Positions 599-49,313 of a DNA stretch of 64,000 bases are shown one piece after another. The notes beneath the pieces were generated by a model. That model saw only the letters and a list, made by a program, of their open reading frames with translations, was not told the origin of the DNA and searched no databases. Position 1 is the first letter of the stretch, and each line of letters opens with the position of its first letter. Both the position numbers and the translations under genes were made by a program. This DNA comes from Candidatus Altimarinota bacterium (GTDB lineage: Bacteria; Patescibacteriota; Gracilibacteria; BD1-5; UBA2023), in the NCBI GenBank assembly GCA_031375155.1, contig JANMHM010000057.1:2661-66660 (forward strand), in the 5' to 3' direction.

Positions 599-629
599 GC
601 CCGCTTCACGCGGGCCTTTTTCTTTTTTC
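599..629 (+). terminator. intrinsic terminator
   Basis: GCCCGC-ttcac-GCGGGC stem-loop followed by CTTTTTCTTTTTT. Confidence 0.6.
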
Positions 630-704
630 CTATTTCTTCTTCATTCTATAAACTCGCGAAGAACAAGTTTTTGCAATTTTCCACTATTTCTCTATCATTT
701 CTCT

Positions 705-3197: not shown

Positions 3198-3199
3198 TT

Positions 3200-5680: not shown

Positions 5681-6781
5681 ATGCAATTCGAATACTATAG
5701 CATCCTCGAGATTTCTCGTGAAGCGACTCCCGAAGAAATAAAAAAAGCCTATCGAAAAAAAGCGATGGAACTCCATCCTGATCGTCATGACGGAGATAAA
5801 GGAAAGGAAGCCGAGTTCAAAAAGCTCAATGAGGCCTACTCTACGCTCTCTGATGATGGGAAAAAAGCGTACTATGATCGTCATGGAACCATGGACAACC
5901 ACGGACAGTGAGGCGGGTTCGGGGGATTTCAGTGAGGATTCGATGCGGGCGATATCGGAGATATTTTCTCATCATTTTTTGGTGGAGGATTCGGTGGTGG
6001 AGGTGGACGACAGAGAGCTGATATCGGGGAGGATATCGAGATCCGTATGAGTATTTCTCTCGAAGATGCGATCCGAGGCAATAGTCGCAAAGTCGAGTAC
6101 AAGCGTCGAGTGAGCTGTGATACGTGTCATGGAAAGTGAGGAAAGACGACCAAGTGTACGACATGTAACGGTATGGGACAGGTCCGCGAACAGATGCGGA
6201 CGGTATTTGGTGTCATCGAGCAGGCTCGCGCGTGTAGTCGCTGTGATGGTACGGGTGAGATGATCACGGAGAAATGCGGAACATGTCATGGGAAGAAATA
6301 CAACGAAACCACGATCAAAAAAGATATCGAGATCCCTGCAGGAATAGAGGATGGTATGAGCGTGAAGATGCGAAATGAGGGACACGCGGGACGCGATGGA
6401 AACGGTGATCTCTATATCACGTTCTCAGTGCCAAATCGTGAAGGTGGGCTCGAGCGCGATGGTTATACTCTCCACTATAGCGTGCGCATTTCTCCAGCCG
6501 AGGCGACACTCGGAGGGAGCAAGGATATCGAGATCCCGATCATCGGGAAGAAAACTCTCCAAGTAGAGAAATGAACACAGTGAGATGATACCCTGAAGTT
6601 CTCGGGTGAATGACTCACGCGTCTCGATCGTAAATGAACGAAAGGGGATCTCATCATCCACTATGTGATCGATATCTCGACCAAGGTATCAGCTGATGAG
6701 AAGAAACTCTACTCTGCACTGCTCGAGCTCCAGTGAGGGAAAAAACCACCAAAAGGCTTTCTCGAAAGTATTTTTGAATAG
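5681..6781 (+). CDS. dnaJ: molecular chaperone DnaJ
   Basis: J-domain YYSILEISREATPEEIKKAYRKKAMELHPDR, a G/F region, and four CxxCxGxG zinc-finger repeats. In CDTCHGK-G the last Gly is TGA 6137-6139. The frame is open to TAG 6779-6781. Confidence 0.95.
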
Positions 6782-6961
6782 TTTTTTCTGTACTTCTTTT
6801 GCCATTCCGTAGGTATCCCTTTCAAAATCATCTTATGAGAATTGGGTGATTTCATTATCGTAAGGGAAAGGGAAAGAGATTTCTCCGCTACGCTATGAAA
6901 TGACAAAAAAGATGAACTTGCTCATTTTTTGCTTCTTTCTTGAGTGCAGTTTTGTGATTTT

Positions 6962-7039
6962 TTCGACGAGATTTCTGTAAAAAATCCGAAACTGTTTGAG
7001 CTGTAGGCGAGTTTTTCGGATTTAAGAAATCGAGTCGAA
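6962..7039. repeat. nested inverted repeat downstream of dnaJ
   Basis: Outer arms are ttcgacgagatttct (6962-6976) and agaaatcgagtcgaa (7025-7039). Inner arms are aaatccgaaa and tttcggattt. Confidence 0.5.
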
Positions 7040-7152
7040 TACAAAATCCAAAACAAGCTCACCAAAGAAGGACCTTTTGTTTCTTTTCAGTCATGAAAAG
7101 AAAAGCATAAAACACTCTCTTGCAATCTCCCTAAAATCTCTATAATCGAAAT

Positions 7153-7410
7153 ATGTCTACTTCCTACACCGATCTCGTAAATGTCCCTTCTTTTGGGAAA
7201 AAACGCGAAAACAACTTCAATCCTGAACGCGGAGATATCGGATTTTTTTGTCGCGAGTGCTGGAAACAGGTCGATGCGATCCACCTCGAACCACAGAAAG
7301 TCGGCAAACAAGTAAGAGAGAATCTCTACGAATGTCCGATCTGTCATGGGAAGCGTATCGCAGTCGGGACGATCGAAGGACTCAAGGAGCACTACGATCG
7401 AAAGAAATAA
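7153..7410 (+). CDS. small zinc-ribbon protein (hypothetical)
   Basis: 85 aa with no TGA and two CxxC pairs (CRECW, CPICHG). A TTGCAA...TATAAT promoter-like sequence lies just upstream and a terminator lies downstream. Confidence 0.6.
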   Translation: MSTSYTDLVNVPSFGKKRENNFNPERGDIGFFCRECWKQVDAIHLEPQKVGKQVRENLYECPICHGKRIAVGTIEGLKEHYDRKK

Positions 7411-7424
7411 TTTTTAAAAATAAA

Positions 7425-7451
7425 AAACTCTCTCTTGTCGAGAGTTTTTTA
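7425..7451 (+). terminator. intrinsic terminator
   Basis: AAACTCTC (7425-7432) pairs with GAGAGTTT (7440-7447), followed by a T-run. Confidence 0.65.
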
Positions 7452-7464
7452 TTTGCATTCAAAA

Positions 7465-7492
7465 TGTATACATATATACTCTTTTGTATACA
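7465..7492. promoter_or_regulatory. two TGTATACA palindromes upstream of lexA (candidate operator)
   Basis: TGTATACA occurs at 7465-7472 and 7485-7492, 20 bp apart and 22-49 nt upstream of the lexA ATG. The first sits inside TGTATACATATATAC. Confidence 0.3.
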
Positions 7493-7513
7493 TTGTATGT
7501 AACTTTTATTTTT

Positions 7514-8140
7514 ATGGAACTCCTCACTCGCAAAGAGCAACTCGTCTTCCAGAAAGTCCGTGACTTCATATCACAGGGAGAGAAACTCACGATCCGTGCC
7601 CTCCAGGCAGCTCTGGGATACGCCTCTCCTCGCTCGATATCGGTCATGCTCGACCAGATCATGGCGAAGGGATGGCTCTACAGAGACTCCCTCGAGCAGA
7701 TACGCATATCACCTCAGTACAAGACGGATAGTTACGAGGTTCGCTCTATCCCTCTCATATGAGCTATTGCTTGCGGTATGCCTATCTTCGCCGAGGAGAA
7801 CATCGAGACCAAGATACCCATCTCGACCAAGCTCCTCTCCCCCTCGGACGAATACTTCTTCCTCAGAGCCGAGTGAGACTCCATGAATCAGAAATGAGTA
7901 GAAAGTGGTGATCTCGTCCTGATCAAACGAACTGATATTCCCGAAGATGGGAAAATCGTCGTCGCACTGATCAATGATGAAGCAACACTCAAAGAATACA
8001 AAAAAATCGGTGATTCTGTCTATCTCATACCCCACTCGGATAATCCGAAACATCGACCTATTATCTTGGGTGAATCTGATGGGAACATCATGATCCAGTG
8101 AATCTTTGTCCGCGCATTTCCAGGAGATCTCTTTACCTAA
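7514..8140 (+). CDS. lexA: LexA repressor (S24 peptidase)
   Basis: N-terminal wHTH LTRKEQLVFQKVRDFI. The cleavage region is PLI-G-AIACGMPI. The catalytic motif is LRAE-G-DSM, with the Gly encoded by TGA 7874-7876. It also has GDLVLIK and KIVVALINDEATLKEY. Ends at TAA 8138-8140. Confidence 0.9.
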
Positions 8141-13113: not shown

Positions 13114-15024
<1,911 letters not shown>

Positions 15025-16122: not shown

Positions 16123-16626
16123 TTATTTTATGATCGCATAATATTGACCACTTCCTTTGACGATATTATTTCTCAGAGTAGTGAATGCTGATTGATTGAG
16201 CGTTCCTGTGAGTCAGGCGATACTTCCTGTATTGAAGTTTCCTCCACTTAAGTTTTCCATCTTTGCGAATAGTGCAAATTCATCAGTACTCGTTATCATA
16301 AGAGCGCTTGATCCGTATGCATATTTTTGGTTTTGTCCGCACCCATTGTCATTGGTAGTACTTGGATCCACTGGTATCGTACCATATCGGGAAAGTGCTG
16401 TCTCATCTACACATCAGAGAGCGTGATTCGGATAGTCTTCTTTATCGAGAAAGTGACTATTGAGCATCTTTCAGAGTGAGGTCATATGAGAAAGTCGTGC
16501 GACATCCCTGCCTCGTCTCTGGTAGGCAGTGAAACTTGGTAAGAGTGCTGTTATGAGGATACCGAGCGCGGTGATAGCGAGTATGATCTCCATAAGAGTA
16601 AATCCCCGACGAGAAGATATTCGCAT
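16123..16626 (-). CDS. type IV pilin / pseudopilin (prepilin N-terminal cleavage-methylation domain)
   Basis: MRISSRRGFTLMEIILAITALGILITALL carries the G/FTLxE prepilin motif. 167 aa with 4 in-frame TGA. TAA stop at comp. 16123-16125. Confidence 0.8.
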
Positions 16627-16736: not shown

Positions 16737-18692
16737 ATGTCAGAAATCTTCAAGCTCCACTCCCCCTACAATCCCACTGGCGATCAGCCGAAAGCCATAG
16801 CAAAACTCCTCGAGAGTATAGACTCTGGGAATCAGTACCAGACACTTCTCGGTGTTACTGGATCTGGGAAGACTTTTACTATGGCGAACCTGATCGCGAA
16901 GCTCCAGCGACCAGCACTGATCCTCGCACACAACAAGACCCTTGCCGCACAACTCGCACAAGAGTTCAAAGAGTTTTTTCCAGAAAATGCGGTACACTAC
17001 TTCGTCTCCTACTATGACTATTATCAGCCTGAGGCATTTGTCGTGAAGACAGGATCCTATATAGAAAAAGAAGCGACGATAAATGAAGAAATAGATCGCC
17101 TGAGGCATGCTGCGACTGAGAGCCTTCTCACGAGAAAAGATGTCATCATCGTGGCATCAGTATCGTGTATCTACGGTATCGGTGAAGTCGATGAGTATGA
17201 GAAGCAGTGTCTGCGCTTCAAAACCGATGAAGAGTATACGATCGAAGCGATCATCGCGAGCCTCGTGAATCTCCAGTTCAGGCGTTCTACTGCTGACTTC
17301 AAAAGTGGGATGTTCCGCGTGATCGGAGATACTCTCGAGATCTGGCCGAGTTCGAGCGAGGAGATCTGGCGACTCGAGTTCTTCGGAGATACTCTCGAGC
17401 GTATATCGAAAGTAGAATATCTCACGTATAGGATGATAGAAGAGAAACATGAGATCGTCGTATTTCCAGCCAAGCATTTCGTCACGTCGAAATCCGTCGT
17501 CGAAGAAGTATTGCCGAAGATAAAAGCCGAGATGGAAACGCAAGTCGAGTATTTCCAAAGTGTCGGAAAGCTCGTCGAAGCGGAGCGTATCAAGATGCGT
17601 GTCGAGTATGATATGGAGATGCTCGGCGAGGTCGGCTATGTGAACGGGATAGAGAACTACTCCATGTATCTCTCGAACCGAAAAGTCGGTGATCCCGCAT
17701 CGACCCTTATGGACTTCTTTCCGAAGGACTACCTCACTTTCGTCGATGAGTCCCATATCACGATCCCCCAGATAGGCGGGATGTATGCAGGTGATAGAGC
17801 GAGGAAAGAGAACCTCGTGAACTACTGATTCCGTCTGCCATCCGCGCTCGAGAATCGTCCACTCAGATTTCCAGAATTCGAACAGAAATCTGGACAGACT
17901 CTCTATATCTCCGCCACCCCGAGCAAATTCGAACTCGAAAAGAGTGAGGTCATCGCTGAGCAAGTGATACGCCCGACAGGGCTCCTCGACCCGCATATCA
18001 CTATCGAAGATATGGAGTATATGGTGGACTCGATCATGCGACATATCAGGCAGGCACGATCTCGTGGGGAACGTGCGATCATCACGACCATCACGAAGAA
18101 ATCATCGGAAGACCTCGCAGCGTACCTGGCAGAGAACGGGCTCAAAGTCCGCTATCTCCACTCGGAGATCGAGACGCTCGAACGACTCGAGATCCTTCGC
18201 GACTATCGTATGGGTGTCATCGATGTGATCGTCGGAGTCAATCTCATGCGAGAAGGACTCGATCTCCCTGAGACGAGCTTCATAGGAATCCTCGACGCGG
18301 AAAAAATCGGATTCCTCCGCTCCAAGACTTCCCTCCTCCAGATCATCGGACGTGCGGCGAGAAATGTGAATGGCTATGTGGTGATGTACTCTCACGGGAA
18401 GAAAGAGTCTATCGCCATGCGAGACGCGATCGATGAGACGGATAGGCGTAGAAAAGTCCAAGAAGACTACAATACGAAACATGGTATCACCCCGAAGACT
18501 ATCATCTCAGGGATCAAGGAAATCGGTATCCCTTCGAAGAAAAAGGATGCCTTCGATGGAGGACATATCGCCAACATCGAAGTCTATATAAAAAGGCTCG
18601 AACTCGAGATGGATGTCGCTGCCGCGAACCTCGACTACGAGCGTGCGGCGGAGATACGAGATGAGCTCATGAGTGCGAGAAAGAAGCGATAG
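16737..18692 (+). CDS. uvrB: excinuclease ABC subunit B
   Basis: GDQPKAI...LGVTGSGKTFTMAN...ENLVNY-G-FRLPSALENRPL...VGVNLMREGLDLPE...RAAEIRDEL. Fragments 16737-17828 and 17964-18692 share a frame and are joined through TGA 17826-17828. Confidence 0.97.
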
Positions 18693-18695
18693 GGT

Positions 18696-18764
18696 GTCAT
18701 TTCTATAAGTTCCACTTGTATCTGTCATTTCGAGTGTCTCGGTCATTTCGACGAAGGAGAAATC
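18696..18764 (+). repeat. cluster of three GTCATTTC hairpin-repeat copies
   Basis: gtcatttc starts at 18696, 18724 and 18742. The last copy is complete: gtcATTTCgacgaaggaGAAATc. Confidence 0.65.
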
Positions 18765-18783
18765 TTGCCCTGAATCCTCCATT

Positions 18784-19077
18784 ATGCAGAAACTCTATTT
18801 TGTATACATCCTTACAAATCCTTCTCATACAGTATTTTATACTGGTATGACCAATAACTTGATGCGAAGAATATGAGAACACAAAGAAAAACTGAATTCA
18901 AAATCATTCACAGCAAAATATAACTGTATAAAACTCGTATATTTTGAATCTGGGGAAAGCTCGATATGAGCAATCGAAAGAGAAAAAATGATTAAAGATA
19001 TGCGTCGTGAGAGAAAAATAGAGCTTATAGAAACTATGAATCCGAAATGGGAAGATCTCTCTGAAAGATTAGGATAA
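18784..19077 (+). CDS. GIY-YIG nuclease family protein (UPF0213/YhbQ-like)
   Basis: MQKLYFVYILTNPSHTVFYTGMTNNLMRRI-G-EHKEKLNSKSFTAKYNCIKLVYFESGESSI-G-AIEREKMIKDMRRERKIELIETMNPKWEDL. The antisense ORF 18837-19109 in the track is a shadow. Confidence 0.85.
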
Positions 19078-19226
19078 TCAGAGCAAGATGTCTCATACTT
19101 CGACATCACAGGAATATAACAGAGGGCTATGCTACTCCATCATTTGGGGTCTCCGTCATTTCGAGGAACGAGAAATCCTGCTCAGGAAAATCAGAGCAAG
19201 ATGTCTCATACTTCGACATGACAGGA
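19076..19226 (+). repeat. 38-bp direct repeat pair enclosing a GTCAT hairpin
   Basis: aatcagagcaagatgtctcatacttcgacat[c/g]acagga occurs at 19076-19113 and 19189-19226 (1 mismatch). The hairpin gtcATTTCgaggaacgaGAAATcc lies at 19155-19178. Confidence 0.8.
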
Positions 19227-19228
19227 GC

Positions 19229-19259
19229 AAAAATCCCTCCGTATTAGAGGGATTTTTAT
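19229..19259. terminator. bidirectional hairpin terminator
   Basis: ATCCCTC-cgtatta-GAGGGAT flanked by an A-run and a T-run. Confidence 0.6.
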
Positions 19260-19266
19260 ATACTTA

Positions 19267-19545
19267 TTAAGCGAGATAACGAGTAAAATCCTCACTTGTA
19301 GGTCTTCCTCCAGGACCTGAGAATCCTGTAAGATCATTTGGAGCTCGAGATTCAAATCATGTTAAATCTACTGGTTTTTCTACAGGCAACGATAAAACTT
19401 TATTGGATCAGTCTGTAACAAATCATGATACCCTTTTTGTGCCAGCTAAAACTGTAGTAAAATCCTCACTTGTAGGTCTTCCTCCAGGACCTGAGAATCC
19501 TGTAAGATCATTTGGTCACATGTATGTATCTTTTTCTCCTACCAT
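19267..19545 (-). CDS. small protein with an exact internal 20-aa duplication (hypothetical)
   Basis: 92 aa. PNDLTGFSGPGGRPTSEDFT occurs twice, encoded by identical 60-nt segments (19282-19341 and 19456-19515) that are 174 nt apart and in frame. It starts 25 nt after the stop of the giant gene. Confidence 0.4.
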
Positions 19546-19569
19546 AATATTAAAAGTTAAGAATATAAA

Positions 19570-22500
19570 TTACCGTACCACTCGACTGACACTATAGTTG
19601 TTCAGGAAGTTCGAGAGAAGTGGTGGAGGGTTCACGAGAGCACGATTCGAGTACGAGAGGATCACTCCTGTCGTGAGGATGTCATAGGCATTGGTACCAC
19701 GGACATAGAGACGAGAGCTGAAGAGTGGAGTCGCATTTCCATACATGCTTCCATCGAGACGGAGAATAGCGGTAGTGGTAGCAGCACCATCGAATGTGAG
19801 ATTTCCACCTGTAGTAACCGGTATAGCTACATAGACTCATGCGAGATTGGTTACCGCTCATACATTCGGTATACCTGCTCCATTATAGATTTTGATATCA
19901 CCATTTTTCGTGATAAATGCCCAGCTCGAGGTTGTATCTGCATATTGGATGTTACACTTGATGATGAGAGTCCCTTCGACGATGAGTGTACGGACTCCAT
20001 CGAGAATAAATGTATTATTTGGACAGTTTTCGATAGTGACAGTCCCTCGTACTGAGAAGATATTCGAGTTTCCGTTCAGCTTGTAGGGAGAGAGATTTGC
20101 TACCGAAGTGATAGTAAGTCCACCAACTGGCACTACGGTATTACCTATAGAGATAGGAGTGTAGGTAGCTCCTATAGAGCTAGTGGTAACTGTAGTAGTC
20201 GTCGTACGTGCAGAGAACCTAGAAAGAAATGCTTGGATCGCAGAATCTGGTCTAAAGTACTGAGATATTGTACGGTTCACTGTACTCGAAGTACCACCCA
20301 CCATCACAGAGGAAACACGCACCTGGAAGACTGCCATATCGATAGCTGCTGTCGGTTCTGTGATAGGATTTTTATTGAAGAGTGTCATAGCATCATTTCA
20401 GAGAGTATTACCTATAAATGCATCCTTCAGTCGTGACGAGTTTGTTGGATATGTAGTAGAGTCAGAGCCCTTAAAGAGGGTTACTGTATCGCCTATTGGT
20501 CATGTTAATGAGATATTTCGATATGTTCCATTGGAAAGTCTTTCTTGTGCATATCCACCATTTATCACAACATACTGTGATCAATTCAGAATAATTGCAG
20601 GATTATAGCGAGAAAGTGTATTACAAACAGTGGCCGAAGAAATGGATGTTCCTAGAGATTTCAGGCACATTTCTCTGTCTGCAGGAAGGAGAAGTGCTCC
20701 AGCATACCTAGTATCTACATCGAGTGTGACCTTGTCTGCGATCGTGAAGACTCTGGTATTTTTTCCTACGACGACACTATTTTGAGTAAATGGCTTTTTA
20801 AGAAAAGTAGAAGCCCCGAGATTCCCAAATCCTGGAATTGATATAGAAATACCTGTGATAGGATTGGCTCATGGATTAGTCAAGAGTCTGATTTTACAAG
20901 CATCTACGTCTCATCTTTGCCCACACCATGGTGCACCTACCACATCACATTCTTCCCCTGCAGAAGATCCGAGAACCCCATCACCACAGAACCCACCACC
21001 ACCTCCAGAACAACTCGGACCACTACATCATCCCCCTGGACCACTACAGGTGAGAGTATTACCATCATTACATTCAGCAAGTGTTTCATAACAACTAATT
21101 CCGCCGTTATAGGTGCTACATACTCCCTTACTTGGATGTCATTGCGTAGAACATGCCCGTATACCATTAGCACATGTCGGTACATAGTATGTAGGAGTGC
21201 CTACCCCATCTCGTGTCGTGATAGACACTCGACATGCACCGATTTCTGATCCTGAGAAGAGAACATTTGGATTAGATTTTTCTCGTACAGCACAGGTCGT
21301 GATCTGTGTCGTGCTCGTCGCATTCGGGAGATCACAGATACGACTACTCACTCCGGTAAATGCTGAGCCAGAGCTCGTGTCTCCTAGTCCACACTTGATC
21401 GAGTATTCGAGATTCGCGGTCGTTCCAGTATATCAGAGAGCGACACATGAGTATGTGATAGGTGTACGTGGACTCTGAGGACTGATACCAGGAGAAGCTG
21501 TGAGAGTCCCACAGTTCGCACCGATCATGATTTCGATATTGGCAGGATCAGTATTGTTGGTAGGATTGGTATCTCATGGATTCCTCACTGTTGCGACATT
21601 GGAGTACTCTCCTGCTGGGATAGTAGTCACTGTATCAGCGAGGACGACGATATCTGGGAATGATTCTGTCATAGCGAGATCTGTAGAGCGAGTACAGATA
21701 AATGATCGAGAATTATTTCCAGAGATAGCACAGCTCCAGCCTGTACCTGTCACCGAAGTGATAGTGGTACCATTTGGAAGGGTATCTTCGACGGTCGTCA
21801 GTCCAGTAGCCGTCACAGGACCGAGATTTTGTACCTTGAAAGTATACTGTAGTTTTCCTCATTGTGGAACTGTGAGGATATCACGCTCTGGATCTGAGCC
21901 GTCATTGGACGTCTGATGATCACCATAACGCTGTGGCAGTCCACCTACCATTTCTGCGACATATTTTTTGATCGCGAGGTCAAATGAGTTCGGAGGTACG
22001 ATCACGACGATTACTGGATCACAGTTATTCACTTTATAAAATCCATTATCCGGATCAAAGAGTGCGTTATTATTGGGATCTCCTGCATTTTCGAGACAGG
22101 CGATATTTCGATACTGTCCTGGGAGCAGAGTAGGCGCGATATTTGCCGTGAGAGTGATGACTGAGCTGTATTCACCTTTTGCGAGGATACGATCTGTAGT
22201 ACATGAGAAGGATTTATTGTCTCCTGCTTTTGTACATGTCCAGTCACCCTGAGGTGATGCCATGGAAGCGATCGTGATACCAGAGGCAAAATCAGAATCT
22301 GTGACCGTGATACGCCCACTCGATGATTTTTCTCCGAGATTTTGTACGATAAATGTATAGACGACCGTACCTCAAGTGAGAACTTTCGTAGCCTCATCAT
22401 CACCGTTAGCAAATTTTTTGATGCGCAGATCAAATCCATCTGGATTCGGAGGATTCACGGTAGCAGGGTCAGAGTTCTGGAGATCCACGGTACATCGAGA

Positions 22501-25500
22501 TTCAGTCCCTGTAGGTATAGCATTATTGGCGAGACATGTCTTTCCTGGAGCTTCAGAAGGATTATGGACAAATGCCCTATTCACATATCCTTCTGCCTTA
22601 AATGCGACACTATTTGCCTTCACAGGGACAGTAATCACGGGAAATACTTGGTTGGCTTCGATGGTTGCAGTAGTCGTACACATGAATCTATCACCTCACA
22701 CTACCCCCAAACATGTCCATCCATTTCCAGATGGTACATCTCGAAGAACTATCGGAGATGGGAGGATATCGATGACAGTCGTCACTCCAGTACTCGTCTC
22801 TGGTCATACATTTTGGACGACGATATTATAGTTATAGTCTTCTGTCGGAAGGATAGAGGCAAATACATCTTCTCCTTTCGCGTATTTCTTGATACGAAGA
22901 TCGAAATTCTTGGTCTCGACTGGAGGCGTATAGCTCGCACGACATTCAGGTGAAGTCTGTCCACCAGCGGTACAGTTCCATGTATACTGGAAGTTTTCGA
23001 TATTAAAACTCGGATCGAAACCAAAAGTCTGAGTAAATCCTGTGACTGTCCCGACACTACAGAGTCATGGAGTCGATGAGATGATCGGTGCAGAAAGTGC
23101 TCATGAGATTGTCGAACTACATAGTGGAGTATTTACGAGGGATACAGTGATAAATGCAGGATCAGAATTTGTCGTATCCTGTGTACAGCTCGCTGTATCG
23201 GTAGTCGGGAGAGAACCATCAGCATTACAACGATTCGTCTCATTTGGATTATCGACAGAGGCGATATTTTTTATCGTTCCTGTGGTCGCTGTGACTCGGA
23301 ATGGTACTTCGATATCAGGAGCAAATCCACCAGTATGCGCTATAGAAGAGATAGTGGTACAATTCAGTACACGTCCTGAGACACTACATGTCCAGAAACC
23401 ATTTCCATTTACTGTTCCAGTATAGTCTACACCTGCGGGAAGGATATCTCGAACGGTAGTGATTCCAGTAGTAGCAGACGGTCCATTATTGATCACACGG
23501 AGTGTATACTTATACGTAGCTCAGTTATTGACCGATATACCTGGTGCGAAGTTGGCATCATCAGAGAAATTAAAATATTTCCTAATCGAAAGATCGAATC
23601 CTGTAGAAACAGGAGGAGTCACTGAGAATACTGCTGGATCTGAATTATTATTACCATAGTTATTCGCAGGGTTCTCATCTGGATTGGATACAGTACCGAT
23701 ATTCGTGACAGTTCCAGTCGTAGCCGTGACGACTACTGGTACAGAGATATTTGGGTATGTTTGTCCAAAAGGGAGACTATCCGATCGACTACATGTGATC
23801 GTCGAAGCGACTGGAGCTCCGTTACATGACCATCCTGGAGCTGAGATATTTCCGTTTGGATTGACTCCGAGTGGGAAAGTATCGGTTACAGTCGTCGTAT
23901 TCGAAGTGCTCGCTAGACCTTCATTTTTCACACGGATAATATAAGTAAAGGCATTACCTGTATTTTTGGCAATCCCTGGAGCTGTCTGAGCATCACCTAC
24001 AGCGTCGACTGTATCGATATATTTCTTCAGAGATAAGTCAAATGTCGAAGGAGTAGGTGTTCCTGTAGGATTTACTGGAGTATTACAGTTCTGGATGCGC
24101 GAAGGACTGAAATCATCAGATACACACTGTACTGTATAGCTTCCTGCCGTTGCATATGTACATACTCCATTCGCAGCATTCACTGTCTGACCGTTTCCAC
24201 AGTCGATCGTGACGGGAGAGACAGGGTTAGATATATTACAAGCGACACTATAACTTGCCGGAAGAGTATTCACCGCTGTCGTACGAGTCGCTGTAGCGCT
24301 TACACAGGCTGGAGGAGGAATATAAATATTTACTGGCTGACAAGAAGTATTACATCCTGGAGTCGCCGTTCCCCATCCATTACGAGTCGTATCTGTCGGA
24401 TCACAGAGCTCAGCTCCATTTCTCACACCATCACCACACTGTGGTCATACCACAGGAGGAGTATAGCTAGTCGTACAGCTCGGGCTCGATCCTCCTGGAC
24501 CGACACAGTTCCATGCATAGACGATAGGACTCGATCCTGTAGTCTGGAATCCTGCAACACTTGTCCCTGCTGCACAGAGTCCTGGAGACTGGAAGGTAAT
24601 AGGAGATGAGCTCACAGCAGGTAGAGTCGTAGGACATACCGGTGGTGGGGTGACTACTGGTGGAGTATAGCTCGTAGTACAGCTCGGGCTCGATCCTCCT
24701 GGACCGACACAGTTCCATGCATAGACGATAGGACTCGATCCTGTAGTCTGAAATCATGCAACACTTGTCCCTGCAGCACAGAGTCCTGGCGACTGAAATG
24801 TGATAGGAGAGGAGCTCACAGCAGGTATAGTCGTAGGACATATTGGAGCAACTGGAGGAGGGGTCGGTCCGACAGCACCACACGTGATAGCCGTACCACT
24901 GGTACAGGTCCATGTCGCGGTGACTGTATTGTTCCAGAGTCCAGAGATATCTGGACTCGTACGACCATCGGTAGCGGTACCGACAGCACAGAGGTCTGTC
25001 CATATACGAGTCGCCGCTACAGTGACGAGAGGATTGGCAGCTTGGACGCTATACGGAAGAGTAGGGTCACCGAGTGGTCCACATACTGGCGGAGGAGTGA
25101 CTGGTGGTATATAATCTGCCATACATGATGGACTCGATCCATTCGCATTACTACAAGTCCAAGAGTAATTTATGGGATTTGTCCCTGTTGCCTGAAATCC
25201 TGTAACATTTGATCATGACGGACAGAGACCTCATGCACTCGAAGTAATAGATGTTGTCTGATTTCATACAGTAGATCCACATACGGGAGGTGGAGTGACT
25301 GCGACTGGCTGACATGTCGCACTACAAGTCGATCCTGTCTGACCATTCTGAGCACCGAGATCACACTGTTCACCGTCAACTACATCAACAACTCCATCAC
25401 CACACCAGGTAACTTCATATGGTTGACACTCGTTATGAACATATGGTCCGACGAGACTAGATCATCGAATCTCACCATACATGACACTATAGCGAATATC

Positions 25501-25848
25501 TATAGCATTCGTTCTTCGTTGAGCTCATGTGCTAGGAGTAGGAACAACATAAGCAGAACTCGCTATGATTCTCGAGCTTTGTCCTGCTCAGACTATCTGA
25601 TTTGCACTCACTGCTCGAAATACTGGTCAAGAGCCACCGTACATACTCGAGAAGTTTACAGCCGATCAGCCATCATCGATTTGGATGGAATATGGCGATC
25701 CATTGGTCAGATCGTCAGAAAAATATATTGTCTGACCCGCACGGATTTTTTCCGAAGGAAAGCTCTGGTCACATACAGCTGCATAAGCACTTGTATGGAA
25801 AGTGATGAGAGCAAGAGCAGAGAGGGCAAGAGAGAAGTATGTTCTCAT
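19570..25848 (-). CDS. giant secreted surface protein with DUF11-type repeats (2092 aa)
   Basis: All minus-strand fragments (25666-25848, 24754-25122, 23521-24426, 23101-23496, 22372-22683, 21859-22263, 21574-21816, 21139-21351, 19858-20388) share one frame. I found only TGA between them, and the first TAA is at comp. 19570-19572. Signal peptide MRTYFSLALSALALITFHTSAYA. Repeated modules begin FDLxxKKY and end TNxAxVxNPxE. Confidence 0.85.
24461..24840 (-). repeat. near-identical tandem coding repeat (period 204 nt) inside the giant gene
   Basis: About 176 nt at 24461-24636 recur at 24665-24840 with a handful of substitutions. They encode CPTT(I/L)PAVSSSPITFQSPGLCAAGTSVAGFQTTGSSPIVYAWNCVGPGGSSPSCTTSYTPPV. 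A diverged third copy lies near 25090-25260. Confidence 0.8.
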
Positions 25849-25889
25849 AGAGAAATAGTGAAGAGGTGAAATAAGTCTAGATTCTATAT

Positions 25890-26069
25890 TTATTTGAGTG
25901 TGCTTCCTGAAGTATCACCAGGCGTGTTATATTTGAGGGTTTCTCCAGGGATTTCTTGAGTTGTATACGCCCTGTTTTCGTCATTCATTTTATTCTTATT
26001 TTGGATAAACAGATATACTCATCCTGCGATGATGGTAACTGTAAGTACGATGAGAAGAGTGATTTTCAT
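25890..26069 (-). CDS. small single-pass membrane protein (59 aa, hypothetical)
   Basis: MKITLLIVLTVTIIAG-G-VYLFIQNKNK... lies between the two giant genes, 21 nt after the upstream stop and 41 nt before the next start. Confidence 0.5.
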
Positions 26070-26090
26070 AAGAAAAATATTGAAGATAAA

Positions 26091-29000
26091 TTATTTTTTA
26101 GCTGGTGGATTCTCTGGTTGCCCGAATTTCTTCTCTTCTATCTTTCAGGTCTCCCAAGGGGAAGGTCATATAGATGACGTATTGAGATTTGCCCCTATTT
26201 GGTATGCATTTGCCGCGGCACCAGTCATATTGTATACAAGAGGCTGTACAGAGGGAGTGGGAGGAGGACCATAACTCAGTCCTTGTCCTGTACCGATAAC
26301 ACCTCCTGTAGTAGTTGTCCCTGTAGTCGAGACGTTTGGATCTGTGGTGACTCTACCAGTATTTGGTTTCGTCGTGATGCCACCATCGCGAGTGATCCCA
26401 CCAGCACCAAGCGTGAGGATATCTGGAGTCCACATTGGATTGCCACCGAATGTTACTTCTTCGGTAACTGTACGAGTAGATTCTTGCTTATCGACGACTG
26501 ATCTTGTAGTAGTACCTGGAACACCTGGGACGTCTTCTTTAGAAATTCTAGAGATATTTGGTGGATTGAGAGCAAATCACAGGTTGAAACACTCTGCGTG
26601 TTTTTCGAATGAGAGAAATGCGTTGAGACGATCTGCTCAGAGAGTTACAGAGTAGCCAAGTTCCTTCATATCAGGTGTAAGTTCTCAGTATACTATGAGT
26701 TTCTTTATATCAGCATCTCATACGCTCTGAGGGAAATTAAGATTCGGGTTTTTACGGTATCTATCCACGGTAGCTTGAGACATATTCGTCTCGATATTTG
26801 CGAGGATCTTATTCTTCATGCTAGCATCAGTAACGACTGATGGAATACCTATGACACGAGTATTAGAGTAGGATGTATCTCGGATATCCTTATATCCTTG
26901 TTGTCCATTTCCTTGAAGCTGATTGAAAGTGATGACAGCCGTAAATCCTCATTTGAAAATATCACCAAGATTATTTACATTTGCCTTATCTATATTTCAG
27001 ATACTCGAAACAATCTGCATAACTTCAGCTTTCGATAAACCATACTGCACAGCAAATTGCTCAGCGAGACTTCCACTCTTTCCACGAGCTTTTTCATAGT
27101 ATGATTTGATTTTTTGTTGATTTGGATCATCTGCGAGTTCGCGAGATTCCCGTCATCCAGAAGAGAGAAATACCACTGCGTCGAAAAACTGTTGAAGATT
27201 CGTATTTGTATCATTCATTTTTTCGAGAAGAAGAGCCCTCTCAGGAATATTTTCATATGTCTTCAGAAGACCAATAAATAGTCTCTTTGCCTCAGTAGAC
27301 TGATTATTTTTGGAAAGAGTTTGTATATTTGTCATTGTCTTTTCATCGAGACGAAGCTCATAGATATAATCTGCGAGTCACTTTTGCATGGTCTTAAGAC
27401 TCTCTGCAACATCGTTTTTCTGTGATGAAAGTGCAACATCTTTCTGTACGTCTTTTTTAGAAGGTGTCCCTGGTATCGTTTCTGTAAGGGTCGTATATGT
27501 TGCTGGGATAGTTTCCGTCTTTGTAACAGTAGCAACCTTTGCCTCACTATATTTGAGATTCATCTGATACCATTCGAGATAAGCAAGAGGGATCTTGAAT
27601 CCTGGCGCAATAGAAAGTCAGATACCCCCACCTGAGAAATCTCGGTTATTTTTGGTACGATTTGCTTCATTTACGACAGTATTCTCGAGTTCCGCTTCGA
27701 GGAGCCCGAATATTGCTCCTGCACGTTTCTGAAGAGTATCTGCATTTGCTCCTGAGAATCAGTGTCGGTTATATGTAGCCTTGAGCTTCTCTGAGAATAC
27801 TTGGAGATTGACATCATCGACTCCTGCAGGGAATGCTTTTTCTAAGATTTTTTTGAGTTCGTCCTTTTCTGAAGATACACTAGAGAGATCCTTCGCGAGA
27901 GACTGGAGACGAGCATAGGTATCACCGATCTCACGAGCACGATCGACAGAATGTCAGAGCATCACTGTGAGGTTTCCTGTACCCGCTGTCACAGAAAGAG
28001 TCGTATTTCCTATATCTCCGCTTCATCCGAGTTGCATAGCACGAACTTTATCTTCGAGTCTGAGTGCGAGAGAACCGAAAGGATGAAAACTTGGCTGTGG
28101 AGTAAACTGTGCCCCAACACCGACTCATGCACTCAGAAATGCACTCTTCTTATCGGTCGATCCTACAGCAAAACGAGAGATAATTGGATAATACATTGTA
28201 ATTCCAGGAACAAATGCTGTCTTTCCTCACTCATTGATACTCGTGAGTCCTACAGAAGCCTTCATACCACTCAGCATACCATCGACCTTCGTGAAGTCTA
28301 TACTTCCATTGGCTCCATACATACCACTTCCTCCGAGAGCCCAGAGATGCTCACCACTACGCATCCATGTAGAGAGAAAGCTTGTTTCTGTAAGTTCTTT
28401 TGCTGCTTTTTCGAGGGCTTTTCTCTTTGTTGCATCAGTCTCTACACTTGCTTGCTTCGTGAGGTCTGCACAGAGAGTAACATATTGGTCTTTTCATGCT
28501 GCTTCGAGCTTTGCCCGAACATCACTCGACATAAGTGCATCTCCGACTTTCAGAAGTCGATTATTTATTTCTGTCTTGTCATTGCGGAGAAATCCTTCGA
28601 GCGATACACCGAGAGCTAGTGATTCATTCATAGCCTGAAAGAATCTTGCTTTTGCTGTCGGGTCTTTCCATGATTCTATATTGCCCTGTACGCCAGCTGC
28701 TTGGGAAAGGGTAGTAAGGGTGACATTGGTATTTTGAAGAGCTTTTTCGAGACGAGCCTTATCCATGCGACCTTCTTGGAAGTCGGAAAGATATGTTCTT
28801 AGAGAAGTGATATCTGTAAGTTTTGAAGCGCCGTCGAGAGCCTTACGAGCATCGAGTGCAGTAAGTCCGTTATCATAGTATGCTTGCATAGTTCTGAGCT
28901 CTGTTTGGATAGTTGGATCTGCCTTCATGCTACCATTCGACTGATAGTATCTCTCGAGGAATGACTGTATACCCTCTTTTTCTCTTGAACCAAATACTCC

Positions 29001-30137
29001 ATCAGGAGTATAGCTTTTGATAATTTTCTCTGCTTGCGCTGCACATGATCGTTGATCTTGAGGTTCTCGTATAGGGCTATTTGCTTCTGTGAGATTGTAG
29101 AGAAGATCTTTTTTATCTGTCTCCGTCATACGACCGACCATCATATAGAGTGATCTCATGTTGGTATCACCAAGGGTTCCTTTCTCGAAAAACCCACGTT
29201 CAGTTTTTGCTCATGTAACAGCCTTGTACTGATCACCGAGCTCTGTAGTCCCGCGAATATTACGTTCTGGTTTTTTGGGCGTATCTACTTTCTTTGGTTC
29301 AACTTTACTGTCGACTACTCATGTATATTTTCTTTTGAGTACATTCACCATTTTATAATATTCAGAAACCTGTGGAGACTGTTTTTTATCATATTCTTCA
29401 GCTTTCTTGAGGAGAATATCGAATCCTCCCTTACTCAGTCATGCGAGTTCTTTTGGAATGACATTATCTTTATCATCACACTCATATGCTGTCGTAACTT
29501 TTGTGAATTTTCAGTCGAGAGTTTCTGTAGTTTCTGTAGCCTGAGCTGGTTTCGGTGCTTCTGCTACTTTTGGTTCTGTATAATTTGCCTTGAGAACAGA
29601 CTCAAAAGATCGCTGTAATACTCAGACAGGATTGTGTGAGTCGTATATCTTTGCTTTCTCGATAAGCTGAGCAAAGTCTTCTTTGCTCACTCATATAAGG
29701 TCTGTACAGATATCTGTAGGCTTATCCTGAGTATAGAGTGTTTGTAGTTTTAGATACTTCTGTCACATGGCTGAAGTATCTTTTGCAATAGCTTCTCTCT
29801 CAGTATAACGCTTCTTTGCATCTGCATATTTTTTCTCTATATCTCCCTTAAAGGTTTTATAAGCCTCTTTATCTCTTTCTGAGCAATTTGGGGAAGCTAT
29901 GGCTTCATCGATTGCTGATATAAGTGCTTTTTTATTTTCTATATTCTCTGTAGCAAGCTTCTCGATGAGTGCTTTTACTTTTTCTGCATTCCCAAAACCA
30001 TCCCACAGAGTCTTGAGTTCCTTGAGAAGAGTCTCGGTTTTTGGCTTATCTACAGGTGAAGGTGGCTGTGTCAGCGTATCACCATTTAGCATCACCCTCA
30101 CCTTCCCGAGATTTTTTATACCATTGATCGTAAACAT
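26091..30137 (-). CDS. giant hypothetical protein (1348 aa), no signal peptide recognised
   Basis: Fragments 29763-30137, 28494-29159, 27378-27563, 27153-27335 and 26166-26435 share one frame. I found only TGA between them, and the first TAA is at comp. 26091-26093. It has a Thr/Gly/Pro-rich C-terminal tail. No known domain recognised. Confidence 0.8.
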
Positions 30138-30254
30138 ATATAAGAAATTAAGATATAGGAAGCGTTTTTTTCGCTTATCCTACGTACGATATCATATTTA
30201 TTCGATTTTTGCAAAAAATAGGAACTTTTCGTGATAGGGCATCTATTGAAAATC

Positions 30255-30282
30255 ATTTTATGAAATAAAAATACTTTGTCAA
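30255..30282 (-). promoter_or_regulatory. sigma70-like promoter candidate for the giant-gene locus
   Basis: On the minus strand, TTGACA (30277-30282) is followed by a 16-nt spacer and TAAAAT (30255-30260), about 120 nt upstream of ATG 30137. Confidence 0.4.
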
Positions 30283-30358
30283 TATAAGTTTGACTATTCA
30301 CGGAAAACTCACTAAAAAAAGACCAGCTGAATAGTCCTTTTAAGATTCTTAACAGGGT

Positions 30359-30619
30359 TTACCTACGTGGATATTTCGGTACAAAAGACTGTACATCCTC
30401 ACCGTCTTTTCCAAGCTGATCAGCTATATGAGTAAAGGCCTGATGCAGGAGTGTGCGTACCTGAGCATCATTACTTCGCATCTCATCTTGCAGATCGAGC
30501 ACGACTCATTCAAGTGAATCAAATCGAGAATCTACTTTCTGAAATCCAGATTTCATTTCAGATGTAAGATCGAGAATCATTTGTTCTAATTTTGTAGTAT
30601 CTGGCATGTGAATATGCAT
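30359..30619 (-). CDS. small coiled-coil protein (hypothetical)
   Basis: MHIHMPDTTKLEQMILDLTSEMKSGFQKVDSRFDSLE-G-VVLDLQDEMRSN... shares the RFDxLEG heptad pattern with 42351-42644. Confidence 0.5.
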
Positions 30620-30727
30620 TATAGATAAATATATAGGAATAGTGTACTCCTCTTTTTTGGGAAATCAAAAATGTCGAACCATTTTGGCTCGACATTGAGA
30701 AAATATATTTTGTATACTTTGTATGTA

Positions 30728-31594
30728 TTATACTCGTCTTCGAAGTGTGAACATCAATCCAAATGCTATGAAGAATGCTGCAGCTATAAGAAGAAGTGTC
30801 TCAGGACCTGTCTCAGTTTTCGTGATATCTTTCGGAGGTACTGGCTTCGGAGTGACAGGAGTCACTGGAGTAGCCGGAGTGACTGCTGGAGCATCGAGCT
30901 TATAGGCGACACACTCGTAGTGAGTAGTAGCAGGACTCTCGAGAGCTGTAGCAAGATCGATAGAATGAGCTACTGTAGGGAATCTGAGAATACCGACCAT
31001 TTCACCATTTTTTTTATCTGTCTTATCGAGTGTATATCCTGCTCAGAGGTCTGCTTCGAGAAATCTTACCTTTGTTCCAGGGGAAAGAGGAAAGTTGGAT
31101 CTTGATCCTGTACCTGTAGCTGACCACTGGATGTCACTCGAGTATTTCCATACACCTGCTTCACTGGCTGGAGTAGTCGTCCATACAGAGTTTCCAAATT
31201 TTACCATATTTGGAGTCTTTTGCTCATCTTTATACGCAATGAGAATATTCGCAGTAGTGTTGGTCCAGCTGTCGAAAAGTCCAGTCATACGACTTCCGAC
31301 TTTTACACTTCATCCGTCGAAACACTGATCACAGCTATTGACACCAAAGGCTGAATTCGAACCACAACTCACTATCTTGTACTCACCGAGAACACCTCCA
31401 GCAGAAGGACTCAGAGATGCAGATGTAGTAGCAGGCGCAGCAGAGAGAGAAGCAGAGAGTGCAGAAGAGACACTTGCGTCAGCAGCAGTCGTCGTACTCG
31501 GAGAAGTAGCACCAGTGACAGCATCAGCCGCCGAGAGAGAAGCGACAGGAGCCATCATCATGATGGCCATCATACAGAGAGAGAGTGATCTCAT
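30728..31594 (-). CDS. secreted protein with a C-terminal membrane-anchor/sorting-like signal
   Basis: Signal peptide MRSLSLCMMAIMMMAPVASLSAA and a Ser/Ala/Thr-rich linker. The C-terminus is KTETGPETLLLIAAAFFIAFGLMFTLRRRV (hydrophobic helix plus basic tail). Three fragments share a frame and are joined by TGA. Real TAA stop at comp. 30728-30730. Confidence 0.7.
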
Positions 31595-42350: not shown

Positions 42351-42644
42351 TTATCTCTTCGAGGACTTCCATGCTGGGATGGTTTCAGCACGGATATCAG
42401 ATATATCATGGAATGCCTGGTTCGAGAGCTTCCACATGGTATTATTGTAGTCTTCTTGATTTGCTCGAAATTCTCGGAGCTCTGAAGAAAGAGTATCTAC
42501 TTTTCACTCCAGCCCATCGAATCGTCACTCGAACCCGTCGAATCGTCATTCTAGTCCATCGAATCTTCATTCGAGAGAGTGAAATCAAGCCTTCATAGCC
42601 TTCATTTCTTCGAGCATTGTTTGTTGGAATTCTGTATCTGTCAT
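42351..42644 (-). CDS. small coiled-coil protein with E-G-R-F-D-G-L heptad repeats
   Basis: MTDTEFQQTMLEEMKAMKA-G-FHSLE-G-RFDGLE-G-RFDGFE-G-RFDGLE-G-KVDTLSSELREFRANQEDYNNTMWKLSNQAFHDISDIRAETIPAWKSSKR. The heptad segment carries four evenly spaced TGA (five TGA in the whole ORF). Confidence 0.55.
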
Positions 42645-42665: not shown

Positions 42666-42920
42666 TTACTTCGCCATCCGTGCCTTCCATGGCGGGAGGA
42701 CTTCTCTACTGATTTCATTGATACTATTAAATGCCTGATTGTTTAGGTTCCAGATAGCAGAGTTGAATGCCTCTTGGTTAGCATTGAATGCCTCTTGGTT
42801 AGACTTAAAACTCGTGAGCTCTTCATGGATAGCCTGTTGTCAGGCTTCGAGAGATTTCTGTCACACTTCGAGAGAGCTCATTTTTTCGAGCATTGTTTGT
42901 TGGAATTCTGTATCAGTCAT
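42666..42920 (-). CDS. small coiled-coil protein (paralogue of 42351-42644)
   Basis: MTDTEFQQTMLEKMSSLEV-G-QKSLEA-G-QQAIHEELTSFKSNQEAFNANQEAFNSAIWNLNNQAFNSINEISREVLPPWKARMAK. Its first 11 residues (MTDTEFQQTML) are identical to the neighbour. Confidence 0.55.
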
Positions 42921-43182
42921 ATGAAAAAATAAAGGATATATACAGAGTATACACGATTTTTCTATTTTGCAAAAATATTTTATAGGATTCTTGAGTGGAT
43001 ATGCTTCTTTTGTTCGAGAGAAATTCATTTTTGCACACATATTTTGCTCAATACACATCAAAATATCCTATTTTTCATAGAATTTTGTGTATGTCAAAAA
43101 TGTGATCTCGCCGATAGCAGGAACGAAGGTCGGCACTATAGTGAGATCGCCTGCGAAAGCAAATGAGAAAAAGTGGAATCAC

Positions 43183-43211
43183 TTGACGCACGAGGTGCTA
43201 TAAGGTAAAAT
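43183..43211 (+). promoter_or_regulatory. sigma70-like promoter candidate
   Basis: TTGACG (43183-43188) is followed by a 17-nt spacer and TAAAAT (43206-43211), 45 nt upstream of ATG 43256. Confidence 0.45.
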
Positions 43212-43255
43212 ATGCTCGTAATCGCGAAAATTATCTTTTTCTAACTTTCTCGAAT

Positions 43256-43885
43256 ATGGCAGGCAATACTCCAACATCAGCAATCCCACAAAGCCTCGAA
43301 ACACCAAAAAATATAAATGTGTCGAAAGTGTCAGCAGCAGTTACTGCTGTTATTCTAGCGTTCCATTTGCAGCTCGCCAATGCCCAAACAGCAGTTGCCA
43401 TGAATACAGCTTCTGGAACTCTCTCATCCACCTCCGCTAGCACTGCGGGGGACAAAAAAAATGGTTGACAAATCTTAAGAAAAGCCGATGGTTCGATTGA
43501 TTTTTGAGGATGGCTATCGGGGAAAACTCCAGAAGAGATAAAAAAGATGGTAAAATGATTGACTGACTCAGAATATGATAGTTATCTGGAGTGGAAGACA
43601 AATAAAAATAATCAGAAAGTTGCGACAGGACAAAAATTGGATGCGACAAATGAACAAAAAATTGCGACGATATGAAGTGGAAATCAAGATTTGCAAAAAT
43701 TGGATTCAACGAATGAGCAAAAGGTTGCGACGATATCAGCGTATGAGATAATAGACCAATATCAGAAAGTACTTTTAGCCTGATGATACCTAAAGCCTGA
43801 TGATAAAGTGACTCTAAGGAGAGCATTAGATACACCAGGAATTGACTGAAATCTCAAAGAAAAGCTCAAACAATATACACTTTAG
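43256..43885 (+). CDS. hypothetical protein (209 aa) with a hydrophobic N-terminal segment
   Basis: ATG 43256 to TAG 43883-43885. The N-terminal segment is VSAAVTAVILAFHLQLANA. It shares a 104-nt module and (K)(I/V)ATGQKLDAT motifs with the next gene. Confidence 0.6.
43461..43564 (+). repeat. 104-nt coding module, copy 1
   Basis: Identical to 44178-44281 except for 2 substitutions. It encodes G-G-QILRKADGSIDF-G-GWLSGKTPEE(I/L)KKMVK-G-LT. Confidence 0.85.
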
Positions 43886-49255: not shown

Positions 49256-49313
49256 TCACCGAGCGAATATCGGAAAGAGAATATGATCTATTTTCCCTTG
49301 CAGAAAAAGAAAT

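Follow-up and report, generated by a model that had tools for sequence, protein, structure and literature searches.

Three adjacent genes on the minus strand of a 64,000-nucleotide stretch of contig JANMHM010000057.1 from a Candidatus Altimarinota bacterium (the window) form a conserved unit, judged by their order in related genomes. The genes, here called g1, g2 and g3, encode a large protein without a signal peptide, a short membrane peptide and a giant secreted protein. A fourth open reading frame (ORF), g4, follows them. The g3 product is a Sec-signal CLIPPER/DUF11 surface giant of the fibrillar-adhesin type, and both this assignment and its role in surface attachment are well supported. 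g3 is a further member of a known adhesin class, and the g1 family and the fixed triad are undescribed; no description of either was found in the families, structures or literature searched. The published Gracilibacteria hypervariation study concerns a different gene with PTD repeats.

The window has a GC content of 43% and its longest ORF under genetic code table 11 is 389 aa; long ORFs appear when only TAA and TAG are used as stops. Three of the four TGA codons in the DnaK gene (13114-15024, minus strand) align to Gly2, Gly160 and Gly388 of Escherichia coli DnaK, which identifies TGA as a glycine codon (table 25). Table 11 breaks positions 19267-30137 into 46 ORFs of at least 60 aa, 23 of which are on the minus strand. 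Under table 25, the same segment contains four co-directional minus-strand ORFs separated by gaps of 21, 41 and 24 nt, and there is no in-frame TAA or TAG in g1, g2, g3 or g4. An earlier note on this DNA had arrived at four tightly spaced co-directional genes by reading through TGA, and its coordinates, lengths and gaps were reproduced exactly.

Contigs from relatives were re-translated with table 25, and 22 related loci were tallied that represent about five sequence-distinct types with GC contents of 28-43%. Some rows of the tally use alternative starts. One more locus, L010, was missed by the motif filter and was examined besides the tally. All 22 tallied loci have a g1-type gene followed by a gene for a small lipoprotein, and a g3-type giant comes next wherever the contig reaches. 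The g1-type proteins of the relatives are 1016-1087 aa long, the lipoproteins 48-93 aa and the giants 1445-1616 aa. The giants end in …YSNRAL.NPPP.LSN.L..Y.V.RV[VT][RK], which matches g3, wherever this end is on the contig. The triad is found in the GC-28% type (L003/L004), in L002 (GC 41%), in the oral Gracilibacteria type (L005-L008, L012 from Candidatus Gracilibacteria GN02-873, and L014-L025), in a variant of the oral type (L011/L013, of which L013 comes from a metagenome-assembled genome (MAG) marked as oral by its record name) and in L010, a MAG labelled Candidatus Peribacteria. All triad-bearing relatives use in-frame TGA. The synteny check in other TGA-recoded genomes that the earlier note had proposed is therefore positive for the g1-g2-g3 order.

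L010 is syntenic with the window through mfd, frr, the gene for a 288-291-aa surface protein, g1, g2, g3, GIY-YIG, uvrB, bcp and dnaK. The other types carry L21 and LysM-CHAP upstream of the triad and CorA downstream, and the window and L010 have RRF and the 288-291-aa surface protein. The flanks differ between types while the triad persists, which argues that retention of the triad does not depend on the neighbouring genes. The triad is returned by scans seeded from either side, one with the g1 domain and the other with the g3 C-terminal domain. A g1-family gene without an adjacent giant was never seen where the contig reaches, in exact-pattern scans that cannot show absence. In the window and in L010 as well, the g1 gene is immediately followed by the genes for a small signal-peptide protein and a g3-type giant. 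L009 and L010 (Candidatus Peribacteria; Peregrinibacteriota at NCBI) are rich in in-frame TGA and behave as code-25 genomes; the L010 counts are 26 in the g1-type gene and 6 in dnaK. The Peribacteria label of these two loci probably reflects classification mapping and not biology. A type IV pilin gene near the triad (16123-16626, minus strand) had also been pointed out. Its N_methyl motif scores 21.6 bits, just above the cut-off of 21.2, and the gene has no conserved linkage to the triad.

The g3 protein begins with a signal-like segment (MRTYFSLALSALALITFHTSAYA, followed by AV; hydropathy 1.58) that is kept in orthologues, and its hydropathy and conservation identify it as a secretion signal. 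Five stretches of g3 match Pfam PF01345 (DUF11/CLIPPER) with E = 4.8e-36 and 124 bits versus a cut-off of 24.6. The protein scores 53 bits against TIGR01451 (cut-off 24), and the FDLxxKK[YF] motif is present in five copies. g3 has 74 Cys residues. Its Cys-rich modules have no Pfam match, and the DNA encoding this region contains a 190-nt tandem duplication (24449-24638 and 24653-24842) that is 93% identical. These results bear out the signal peptide, Cys-containing modules and DUF11-type repeats described for g3 in the earlier note.

DUF11 was renamed CLIPPER in 2025 as a CnaA-like stalk domain of fibrillar adhesins, and in its solved example (PDB 9IFR) a Lys-Asn isopeptide bond, formed with a catalytic Asp, locks the domain (PMC12617251). 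Each of the five g3 stalk repeats carries a Lys (FDLxxKK), an Asp (VxDxLP) and an Asn (N[IRV][AG]x[VL]) in this order, and each also carries a WxC…C pair. The K-to-D spacing is 39-60 and the K-to-N spacing is 102-122 in g3, versus 33 and 91 in 9IFR, a comparison of motifs only, and phmmer does not reach 9IFR. From the ordered residues we infer that Lys-Asn isopeptide bonds may lock the g3 stalk. The likeness to CLIPPER adhesins such as Acinetobacter silvestris B9T28_05395 (2129 aa) (PMC12617251) extends to the signal peptide, the length of about 2,000 aa, the five tandem stalk domains, the Lys/Asp/Asn order with the Cys pair and the presence of non-repeat domains at both ends. g3 differs from these adhesins in having no recognised anchor, in having N- and C-terminal domains of its own without a Pfam or PDB match, and in that its gene always follows those for a signal-less g1-family protein and a tiny lipoprotein.

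The C-terminal domain is the best-conserved part of the giant (mean column identity of 60% in alignment A4), and in g3 it is 57-65% identical to the domains of L010 and L009. Searches with the C-terminal and N-terminal regions gave no match in Pfam, PDB sequences or PHROGs, and the last 445 aa had no match in Pfam or NCBIfam. No LPXTG, OmpA-like, transmembrane or archaeosortase-signal anchor was found in g3, which ends in …NYSVSRVVR without a hydrophobic segment. The C-terminal domain is a candidate cell-proximal docking domain. A second protein of the window, a secreted protein encoded at 46922-49402 (given as 826 aa or as 769 aa) without a Pfam match, was considered as a relative of this domain because its C terminus (…SDPPPG) looked similar by eye; neither the A4 profile nor BLASTP supported the relationship.

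The g1 protein lacks a hydrophobic N terminus or signal peptide and has no family match in Pfam, NCBIfam or PHROGs. Word-indexed protein searches with full-length g1 or the family alignment A2 returned only the window's own protein among the best 8000 candidates, and a scan of genome contigs seeded with the single g1 protein had no match. An exhaustive HMMER search with g1 aa 41-1240 against 1.84 billion representatives found 13 relatives, mostly fragments. The full-length relatives among them are P0004 (1071 aa; phmmer E = 5e-29 from g1) and P0010 (1045 aa). A C-terminal domain of about 240 aa is common to all relatives and is followed by Pro-rich tails, as in P0004, P0008, P0010 and others. 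The family motifs (…SGG..S…YYEK…GF.A.VAYSQ…YLSFE.DAECFNLGF) contain invariant Ser, Cys, Phe and Asn residues (alignment A1), and g1 carries the C-terminal-domain motif of this unnamed family, which is defined here. A profile of the domain retrieved 18 proteins with E values down to 1.8e-73, none of them named and none with a Pfam domain, and the family profile had no match in PDB sequences or Pfam. By these searches, g1 is a member of a rare, unannotated family without a described domain. The term orphan, which the earlier note applied to g1, holds for annotated families and not for the exhaustive and profile searches. The public protein record P0001 is g1 translated with table 4, with Trp at all 24 TGA sites, and g1 relatives are stored publicly as table-11 fragments; for this reason the family escapes word-based searches and annotation. 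The same g1 is present in SRR20217215.

AF2 gave a model of moderate confidence for the g1 C-terminal domain (pLDDT 73, pTM 0.66), in which a helical N-terminal part leads into an alpha/beta part and a predicted beta-hairpin holds the invariant motif. Foldseek comparison of this model with PDB and BFVD gave best E values of 0.29 and 0.08, respectively, with TM-scores of about 0.1-0.15, and identified no fold. The earlier statement that g1 has neither a signal peptide nor a recognisable domain agrees with these searches, and the Thr/Gly/Pro-rich tail is confirmed by composition; aa 1201-1300 are 39% Thr/Ser/Pro and 17% Gly. The invariant Cys and a near-invariant Gln prompted consideration of a thioester domain (TED) in g1. 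No TED Pfam match was found at E values up to 1, and the conserved Gln (…AYSQ) precedes the Cys, whereas the TED Cys motif is N-terminal to the Gln. A Cas1 match (PF01867) to aa 392-553 was also rejected. It scores 13.5 bits versus a cut-off of 22.3 (PADLOC E = 0.0046), is compositional, and occurs in one of five family members, the window protein. In the GC-28% type, the full-length g1-type gene of L003 is directly preceded by a gene for a 535-aa g1-family paralogue (6280-7887). The paralogue has a similar N terminus (…YFEPK…) and a degenerate C-terminal motif (…VCNNLTYGLAF…), as if the partner gene had been duplicated in tandem.

The g2 peptide has a single membrane segment at its N terminus (ITLLIVLTVTIIAGGVYLFI), followed by a polar tail. 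Its positional equivalents in relatives are the small lipoproteins, which have the lipobox LASC, LVSC or VTSC, whereas the window g2 has no Cys and no match to the lipobox pattern [LVI][ASTVI][GAS]C. Codon 17 (26019-26021) is the only TGA in g2 and stands at the position of the lipobox Cys in the orthologues (IIAG-TGA-VYLFI), and the hydrophobic run continues past this Gly codon. The replacement of the lipobox Cys by Gly and the continuing hydrophobic run point to a signal-anchor and not a lipoprotein. A single-base change from TGY to TGA at codon 17 would convert a lipoprotein into a signal-anchored peptide in an organism that reads TGA as Gly; this TGA could also be a sequencing error. As either a signal-anchor or a lipoprotein, g2 is predicted to be a short peptide tethered by its N terminus to the outer face of the membrane. 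The membrane segment that the earlier note assigned to g2 is present, with the refinement that the counterparts in relatives are lipoproteins and the window copy is a Cys-less signal-anchor.

The g4 ORF contains an exact 60-nt (20-aa) direct repeat (19282-19341 and 19456-19515), and the peptide is duplicated as had been described. On codon usage, the g4 frame outscores the other five, yet it stays below 95% of same-length windows from real genes. No counterpart is present in L003, where a hairpin directly follows the giant, in L005, where CorA is next, or in the syntenic L010, where the GIY-YIG gene starts 35 nt after g3. An ORF at the g4 position in L009 has no evident similarity to g4, and a metagenome scan for g4 relatives found none. 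g4 is probably a young, lineage-private ORF that is co-transcribed with g3 and lies outside the conserved unit. Of the four-gene locus described in the earlier note, three genes therefore make up the conserved unit.

The genes of the locus differ in their rates of change. Window and L010 proteins are 88% identical for DnaK, 77% for RRF, 57% for the g3 C-terminal region, 52% for Mfd and 29% for g1, the last value for the C-terminal domain only. Identities between oral strains and L005 are 98-100% for L21 and CorA, 87-99% for g3, 85-96% for g1 and 38-99% for g2. The ratio of nonsynonymous to synonymous substitution rates (dN/dS) was computed from four strain pairs and is 0.18-0.47 for g1, 0.38-0.58 for g2 (where defined), 0.07-0.15 for g3 and 0.00-0.17 for the flanking genes. 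The ratio is below 1 for g1, g2 and g3 orthologues wherever it is defined, which identifies the g1-type gene as a real coding gene. It is the fastest-diversifying large gene of the locus. The N-terminal 700-900 aa of the g1 family diverge rapidly and the C-terminal domain is conserved.

We propose that the g1-g4 locus is one promoter-to-hairpin unit. The TTGACA-16-TAAAAT element that the earlier note placed upstream of g1 is present, matches 11 of 12 consensus positions and is the top match in 18600-31000. This region contains 20 promoter-like matches versus 26.9 in shuffled sequences, which is not an enrichment, and the consensus match is suggestive of a promoter for g1-g4. The strong hairpin reported downstream of g4 was recovered (-16 kcal/mol, z = -5.3), with its end at 19257 and not at 19259. 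Its predicted structure has the GC-containing stem-loop and U-tract of an intrinsic terminator. On its 3' side the stem ends in five U residues, which are paired with the upstream A-tract; this makes the hairpin a bidirectional type and explains why the terminator scan missed it. A 12-bp terminator-like hairpin at 30696-30670 closes the gene upstream of the unit, and the scan found no minus-strand terminator-like site inside g1-g4. The Rfam search of the locus found no RNA family. Shine-Dalgarno sequences were not found upstream of the confident genes of this genome and are thus uninformative on start choice. A motif shared by the upstream regions of g4 and dnaK (TAATTTATAT.TTA) was rejected as a general signal, having only 5 matches in the window (at most 2 mismatches) versus 1.6 expected.

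Coordinates of the g1-g4 locus and its features in the window
Feature	Coordinates	Strand	Description
Promoter-like site TTGACA-16-TAAAAT	30255-30282	minus	118 nt upstream of g1 start
g1	26091-30137	minus	1348 aa, 24 TGA
g1 conserved C-terminal domain, aa 968-1204	26526-27236	minus	SGGRESRELAD…YYEK…GFTAVITFNQ…FLSFEKHAECFNLGF
g1 Thr/Gly/Pro-rich low-complexity tail, aa 1205-1348	26094-26525	minus	Composition
g2	25890-26069	minus	59 aa, 1 TGA
g3	19570-25848	minus	2092 aa, 28 TGA
g3 signal peptide, aa 1-24, and conserved N-terminal domain, aa 25-148	25405-25848	minus	Domain ends at WCGDGVVD
g3 Cys-rich modules	24049-25404	minus	CGDG…ExCD units and four-Cys modules of ~70 aa
g3 stalk, five CLIPPER/DUF11 domains	21514-24048	minus	Starts at aa 603, 751, 982, 1139 and 1289
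g3 Cys/Gly-rich linker, aa 1446-1655	20884-21513	minus	GGGGG run and third CGDG…EECD unit
g3 conserved C-terminal domain, aa 1656-2092	19573-20883	minus	~440 aa, ends …SYSNRALVNPPPLLSNFLNNYSVSRVVR
g4	19267-19545	minus	92 aa, 4 TGA
Terminator-type hairpin AAAAAUCCCUCU/GGAGGGAUUUUU	19229-19257	minus	13-bp stem, A-tract/U-tract arms

Beyond the downstream hairpin lie a convergent GIY-YIG gene and then uvrB. The GIY-YIG gene is small (~18787-19080, plus strand; Pfam E = 2.9e-14), is kept in L010 and is bracketed by two pairs of direct repeats (19071-19113/19184-19226, 95%; 18736-18768/19149-19181, 88%). A family of small coiled-coil-like ORFs (…SLEGRFDGLEGRFDG…) occupies 30359-30682, 42351-42644 and 42666-43058, all on the minus strand. 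One of these ORFs separates the upstream terminator from the g1 promoter-like site; at that position L010 holds only about 220 nt, too short for such an ORF. The 288-aa product of the next gene upstream (30728-31594, minus strand) carries a signal peptide as well as regions rich in Ala/Ser/Thr and in Pro, and it matches nothing in Pfam or NCBIfam; its L010 counterpart is at 2472-3347. The C terminus has KTETGPET, a transmembrane segment and RRRV, an arrangement that resembles a sortase-/exosortase-type sorting signal and is kept in L010. Elsewhere in the window, 486-3197 (plus strand) encodes an 830-aa RecG helicase with DUF559 (Vsr-like endonuclease) inserted between the DEAD and Helicase_C domains (Pfam E = 4.5e-28, aa 463-555) and flanked by Gly/Pro/Ser-rich linkers. 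Adjacent unannotated proteins encoded at 43163-43885 and 43946-45868 (both plus strand) share a 125-aa segment that is 54% identical (…GGQILRKADGSIDFGGWLSGKTPEE.KKMVKGLT…), and a 1365-aa signal-less unannotated protein is encoded at 53690-57787.

We lean, by a modest degree, towards the triad being one functional surface-adhesion module. g3 would be exported by Sec, fold into a covalently stabilised stalk and expose binding modules to the cell of a host or prey. Since it lacks an anchor, g3 is proposed to be held at the cell by docking to its partners. The conserved g3 C-terminal domain would dock non-covalently to membrane-tethered g2 and to the g1 C-terminal domain, a step that we regard as tentative and rather doubtful. 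g1 would reach the outside of the cytoplasm by a route not visible in its sequence, and its variable part would form a second, fast-diversifying face of the complex. An extracytoplasmic g1 is possible, at a level that falls somewhat short of probable. g4 would be transcribed with g3 and not be a part of the machine. What g1 does in such a complex we infer from the features considered below.

Exposure of g1 is favoured by its rate of change, by its Pro/Thr/Gly tail and by the likeness of its tail ending to that of the lipoprotein in the oral type. There, the tails of g1 and g2 both close with an acidic-aromatic peptide of a similar kind (…GLENFF and …GSLSFDF), which hints that both tails may be in one compartment. 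The earlier note had called g1 non-secreted. The lack of a Sec signal agrees with that label, and the fast evolution and the Pro/Thr-rich tail argue at least equally for exposure. Several results weigh against the proposed complex. No Sec or Tat signal or transmembrane helix was found in g1 of any sequence-distinct type, and no dedicated secretion ATPase is encoded beside the cassette in any locus examined. g1 is Cys-poor, in contrast to g3, and its N-terminal half, which is K/E-rich and predicted to be mostly helical, looks cytoplasmic. g2 is barely conserved (38% identity between close strains) and has no evident specific docking interface. AF2 prediction of the g1 middle region from five sequences had a pLDDT of 36.7 and was unusable, and the promoter call is a consensus match and nothing else.

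The absence of a signal peptide or transmembrane segment, the Cys-poor composition, the K/E-rich helical half and the obligate linkage with the giant would all fit a cytoplasmic accessory role for g1, which we rate as unlikely, yet the strongest of the alternatives. g1 would then be an export or holding chaperone for a 1,450-2,100-aa precursor, in the way that Asp proteins act for serine-rich adhesins, or a cytoskeleton-like scaffold for placing the adhesin, in the way that HMW1-3 act for P1 in Mycoplasma. Pro-rich domains are found in the Mycoplasma cytadherence accessory proteins. For a chaperone, it would be unusual to have the highest dN/dS among the large genes and to diverge more steeply than anything else in the locus. 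With g2 counterparts that are lipoproteins and a g3 without an anchor, there is no transmembrane link to a scaffold, and g1 has no Pfam similarity to aSec or HMW components.

Two other explanations are less likely. An improbable one is that g1 is a host-directed effector or pore former, with Gly/Ser/Thr-rich amphipathic middle segments that insert into the prey envelope once the adhesin has brought the cells together. g1, P0004, P0010 and the L005 protein do have in common two moderately hydrophobic Gly-rich segments at corresponding positions, g1 diversifies very quickly, and such a function would fit a predatory or parasitic lifestyle; related organisms are epibiotic predators with giant surface proteins (PMC8080830). 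However, g1 has no similarity to the toxin, translocator or pore-former families or folds searched, and its hydropathy maxima (about 1.07) are under the transmembrane-helix range. In g1 the conserved part lies at the C terminus and the variable part at the N terminus, opposite to the layout of polymorphic toxins, and no immunity-like gene is present. That three or four unrelated genes share an inherited order without functional coupling, as compact candidate phyla radiation (CPR) genomes with common short gaps might allow, is very improbable given that the triad persists over GC contents of 28-43% and differing flanks, that g1 and g3 retrieve each other in independent scans, and that g1-family genes were not seen without a giant.

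The surface-adhesion module has partial parallels in known systems. The triad resembles Mycoplasma cytadherence in that a reduced-genome, TGA-recoded epibiont has a large adhesin and a large signal-less partner. In Mycoplasma pneumoniae, the P1 adhesin operon acts with HMW1-3, which are large, signal-less, fast-evolving accessory proteins with Pro-rich low-complexity regions. The two systems share neither sequence nor domain similarity (no Pfam match). Mycoplasma has no cell wall and its adhesin is a membrane protein, whereas g3 is without a membrane anchor and g1 has a distinct conserved C-terminal domain. Dedicated accessory proteins also control export or retention in LapA with LapG/LapD and in the serine-rich-repeat adhesins with the aSec Asp1-3 proteins. 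The triad is like these systems in co-encoding a giant adhesin with small and large accessory proteins, and unlike them in having no homology to LapG, LapD, SecA2/Y2 or Asp proteins in Pfam and NCBIfam searches. An outer membrane is not expected in these bacteria. A further parallel is Vampirococcus lugosii (Absconditabacteria), a related TGA-recoded CPR predator whose giant predicted surface proteins with DUF11, integrin and fibronectin domains have been proposed to function in host or prey recognition and attachment (PMC8080830). The available part of that report lists the large proteins by domain content and describes neither a g1-lipoprotein-giant cassette nor a g1 family. By analogy, host attachment by the g3 locus is plausible.

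The cassette is a concrete, conserved candidate for how CPR bacteria of the Gracilibacteria/Absconditabacteria type, almost none of which are cultured, hold on to their hosts. It combines a recognisable isopeptide-type adhesin with two obligate partners, one of them a fast-evolving protein of 1,000-1,350 aa, and so provides defined targets for antibodies, surface proteomics, cryo-electron tomography labelling and host-range comparison. A practical lesson is that translation with table 4 or 11 fragments the g1 family or puts Trp in place of Gly, which hides it from routine annotation. The most novel proposal is also a long shot: the g1 family would be a new type of adhesin partner, confined to TGA-recoded CPR bacteria, that comes to the cell surface without a Sec signal and, with the tiny lipoprotein and its own Cys-bearing C-terminal domain, anchors or arms an anchorless isopeptide-stalk fibre. 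Interest in the cassette would rise if g1 turned out to be exported without a signal and to act as an anchor or effector. If the proposal is true, ultrasmall epibionts with a cell wall, the human-oral GN02 lineage included, would have a new way to anchor and export giant adhesins.

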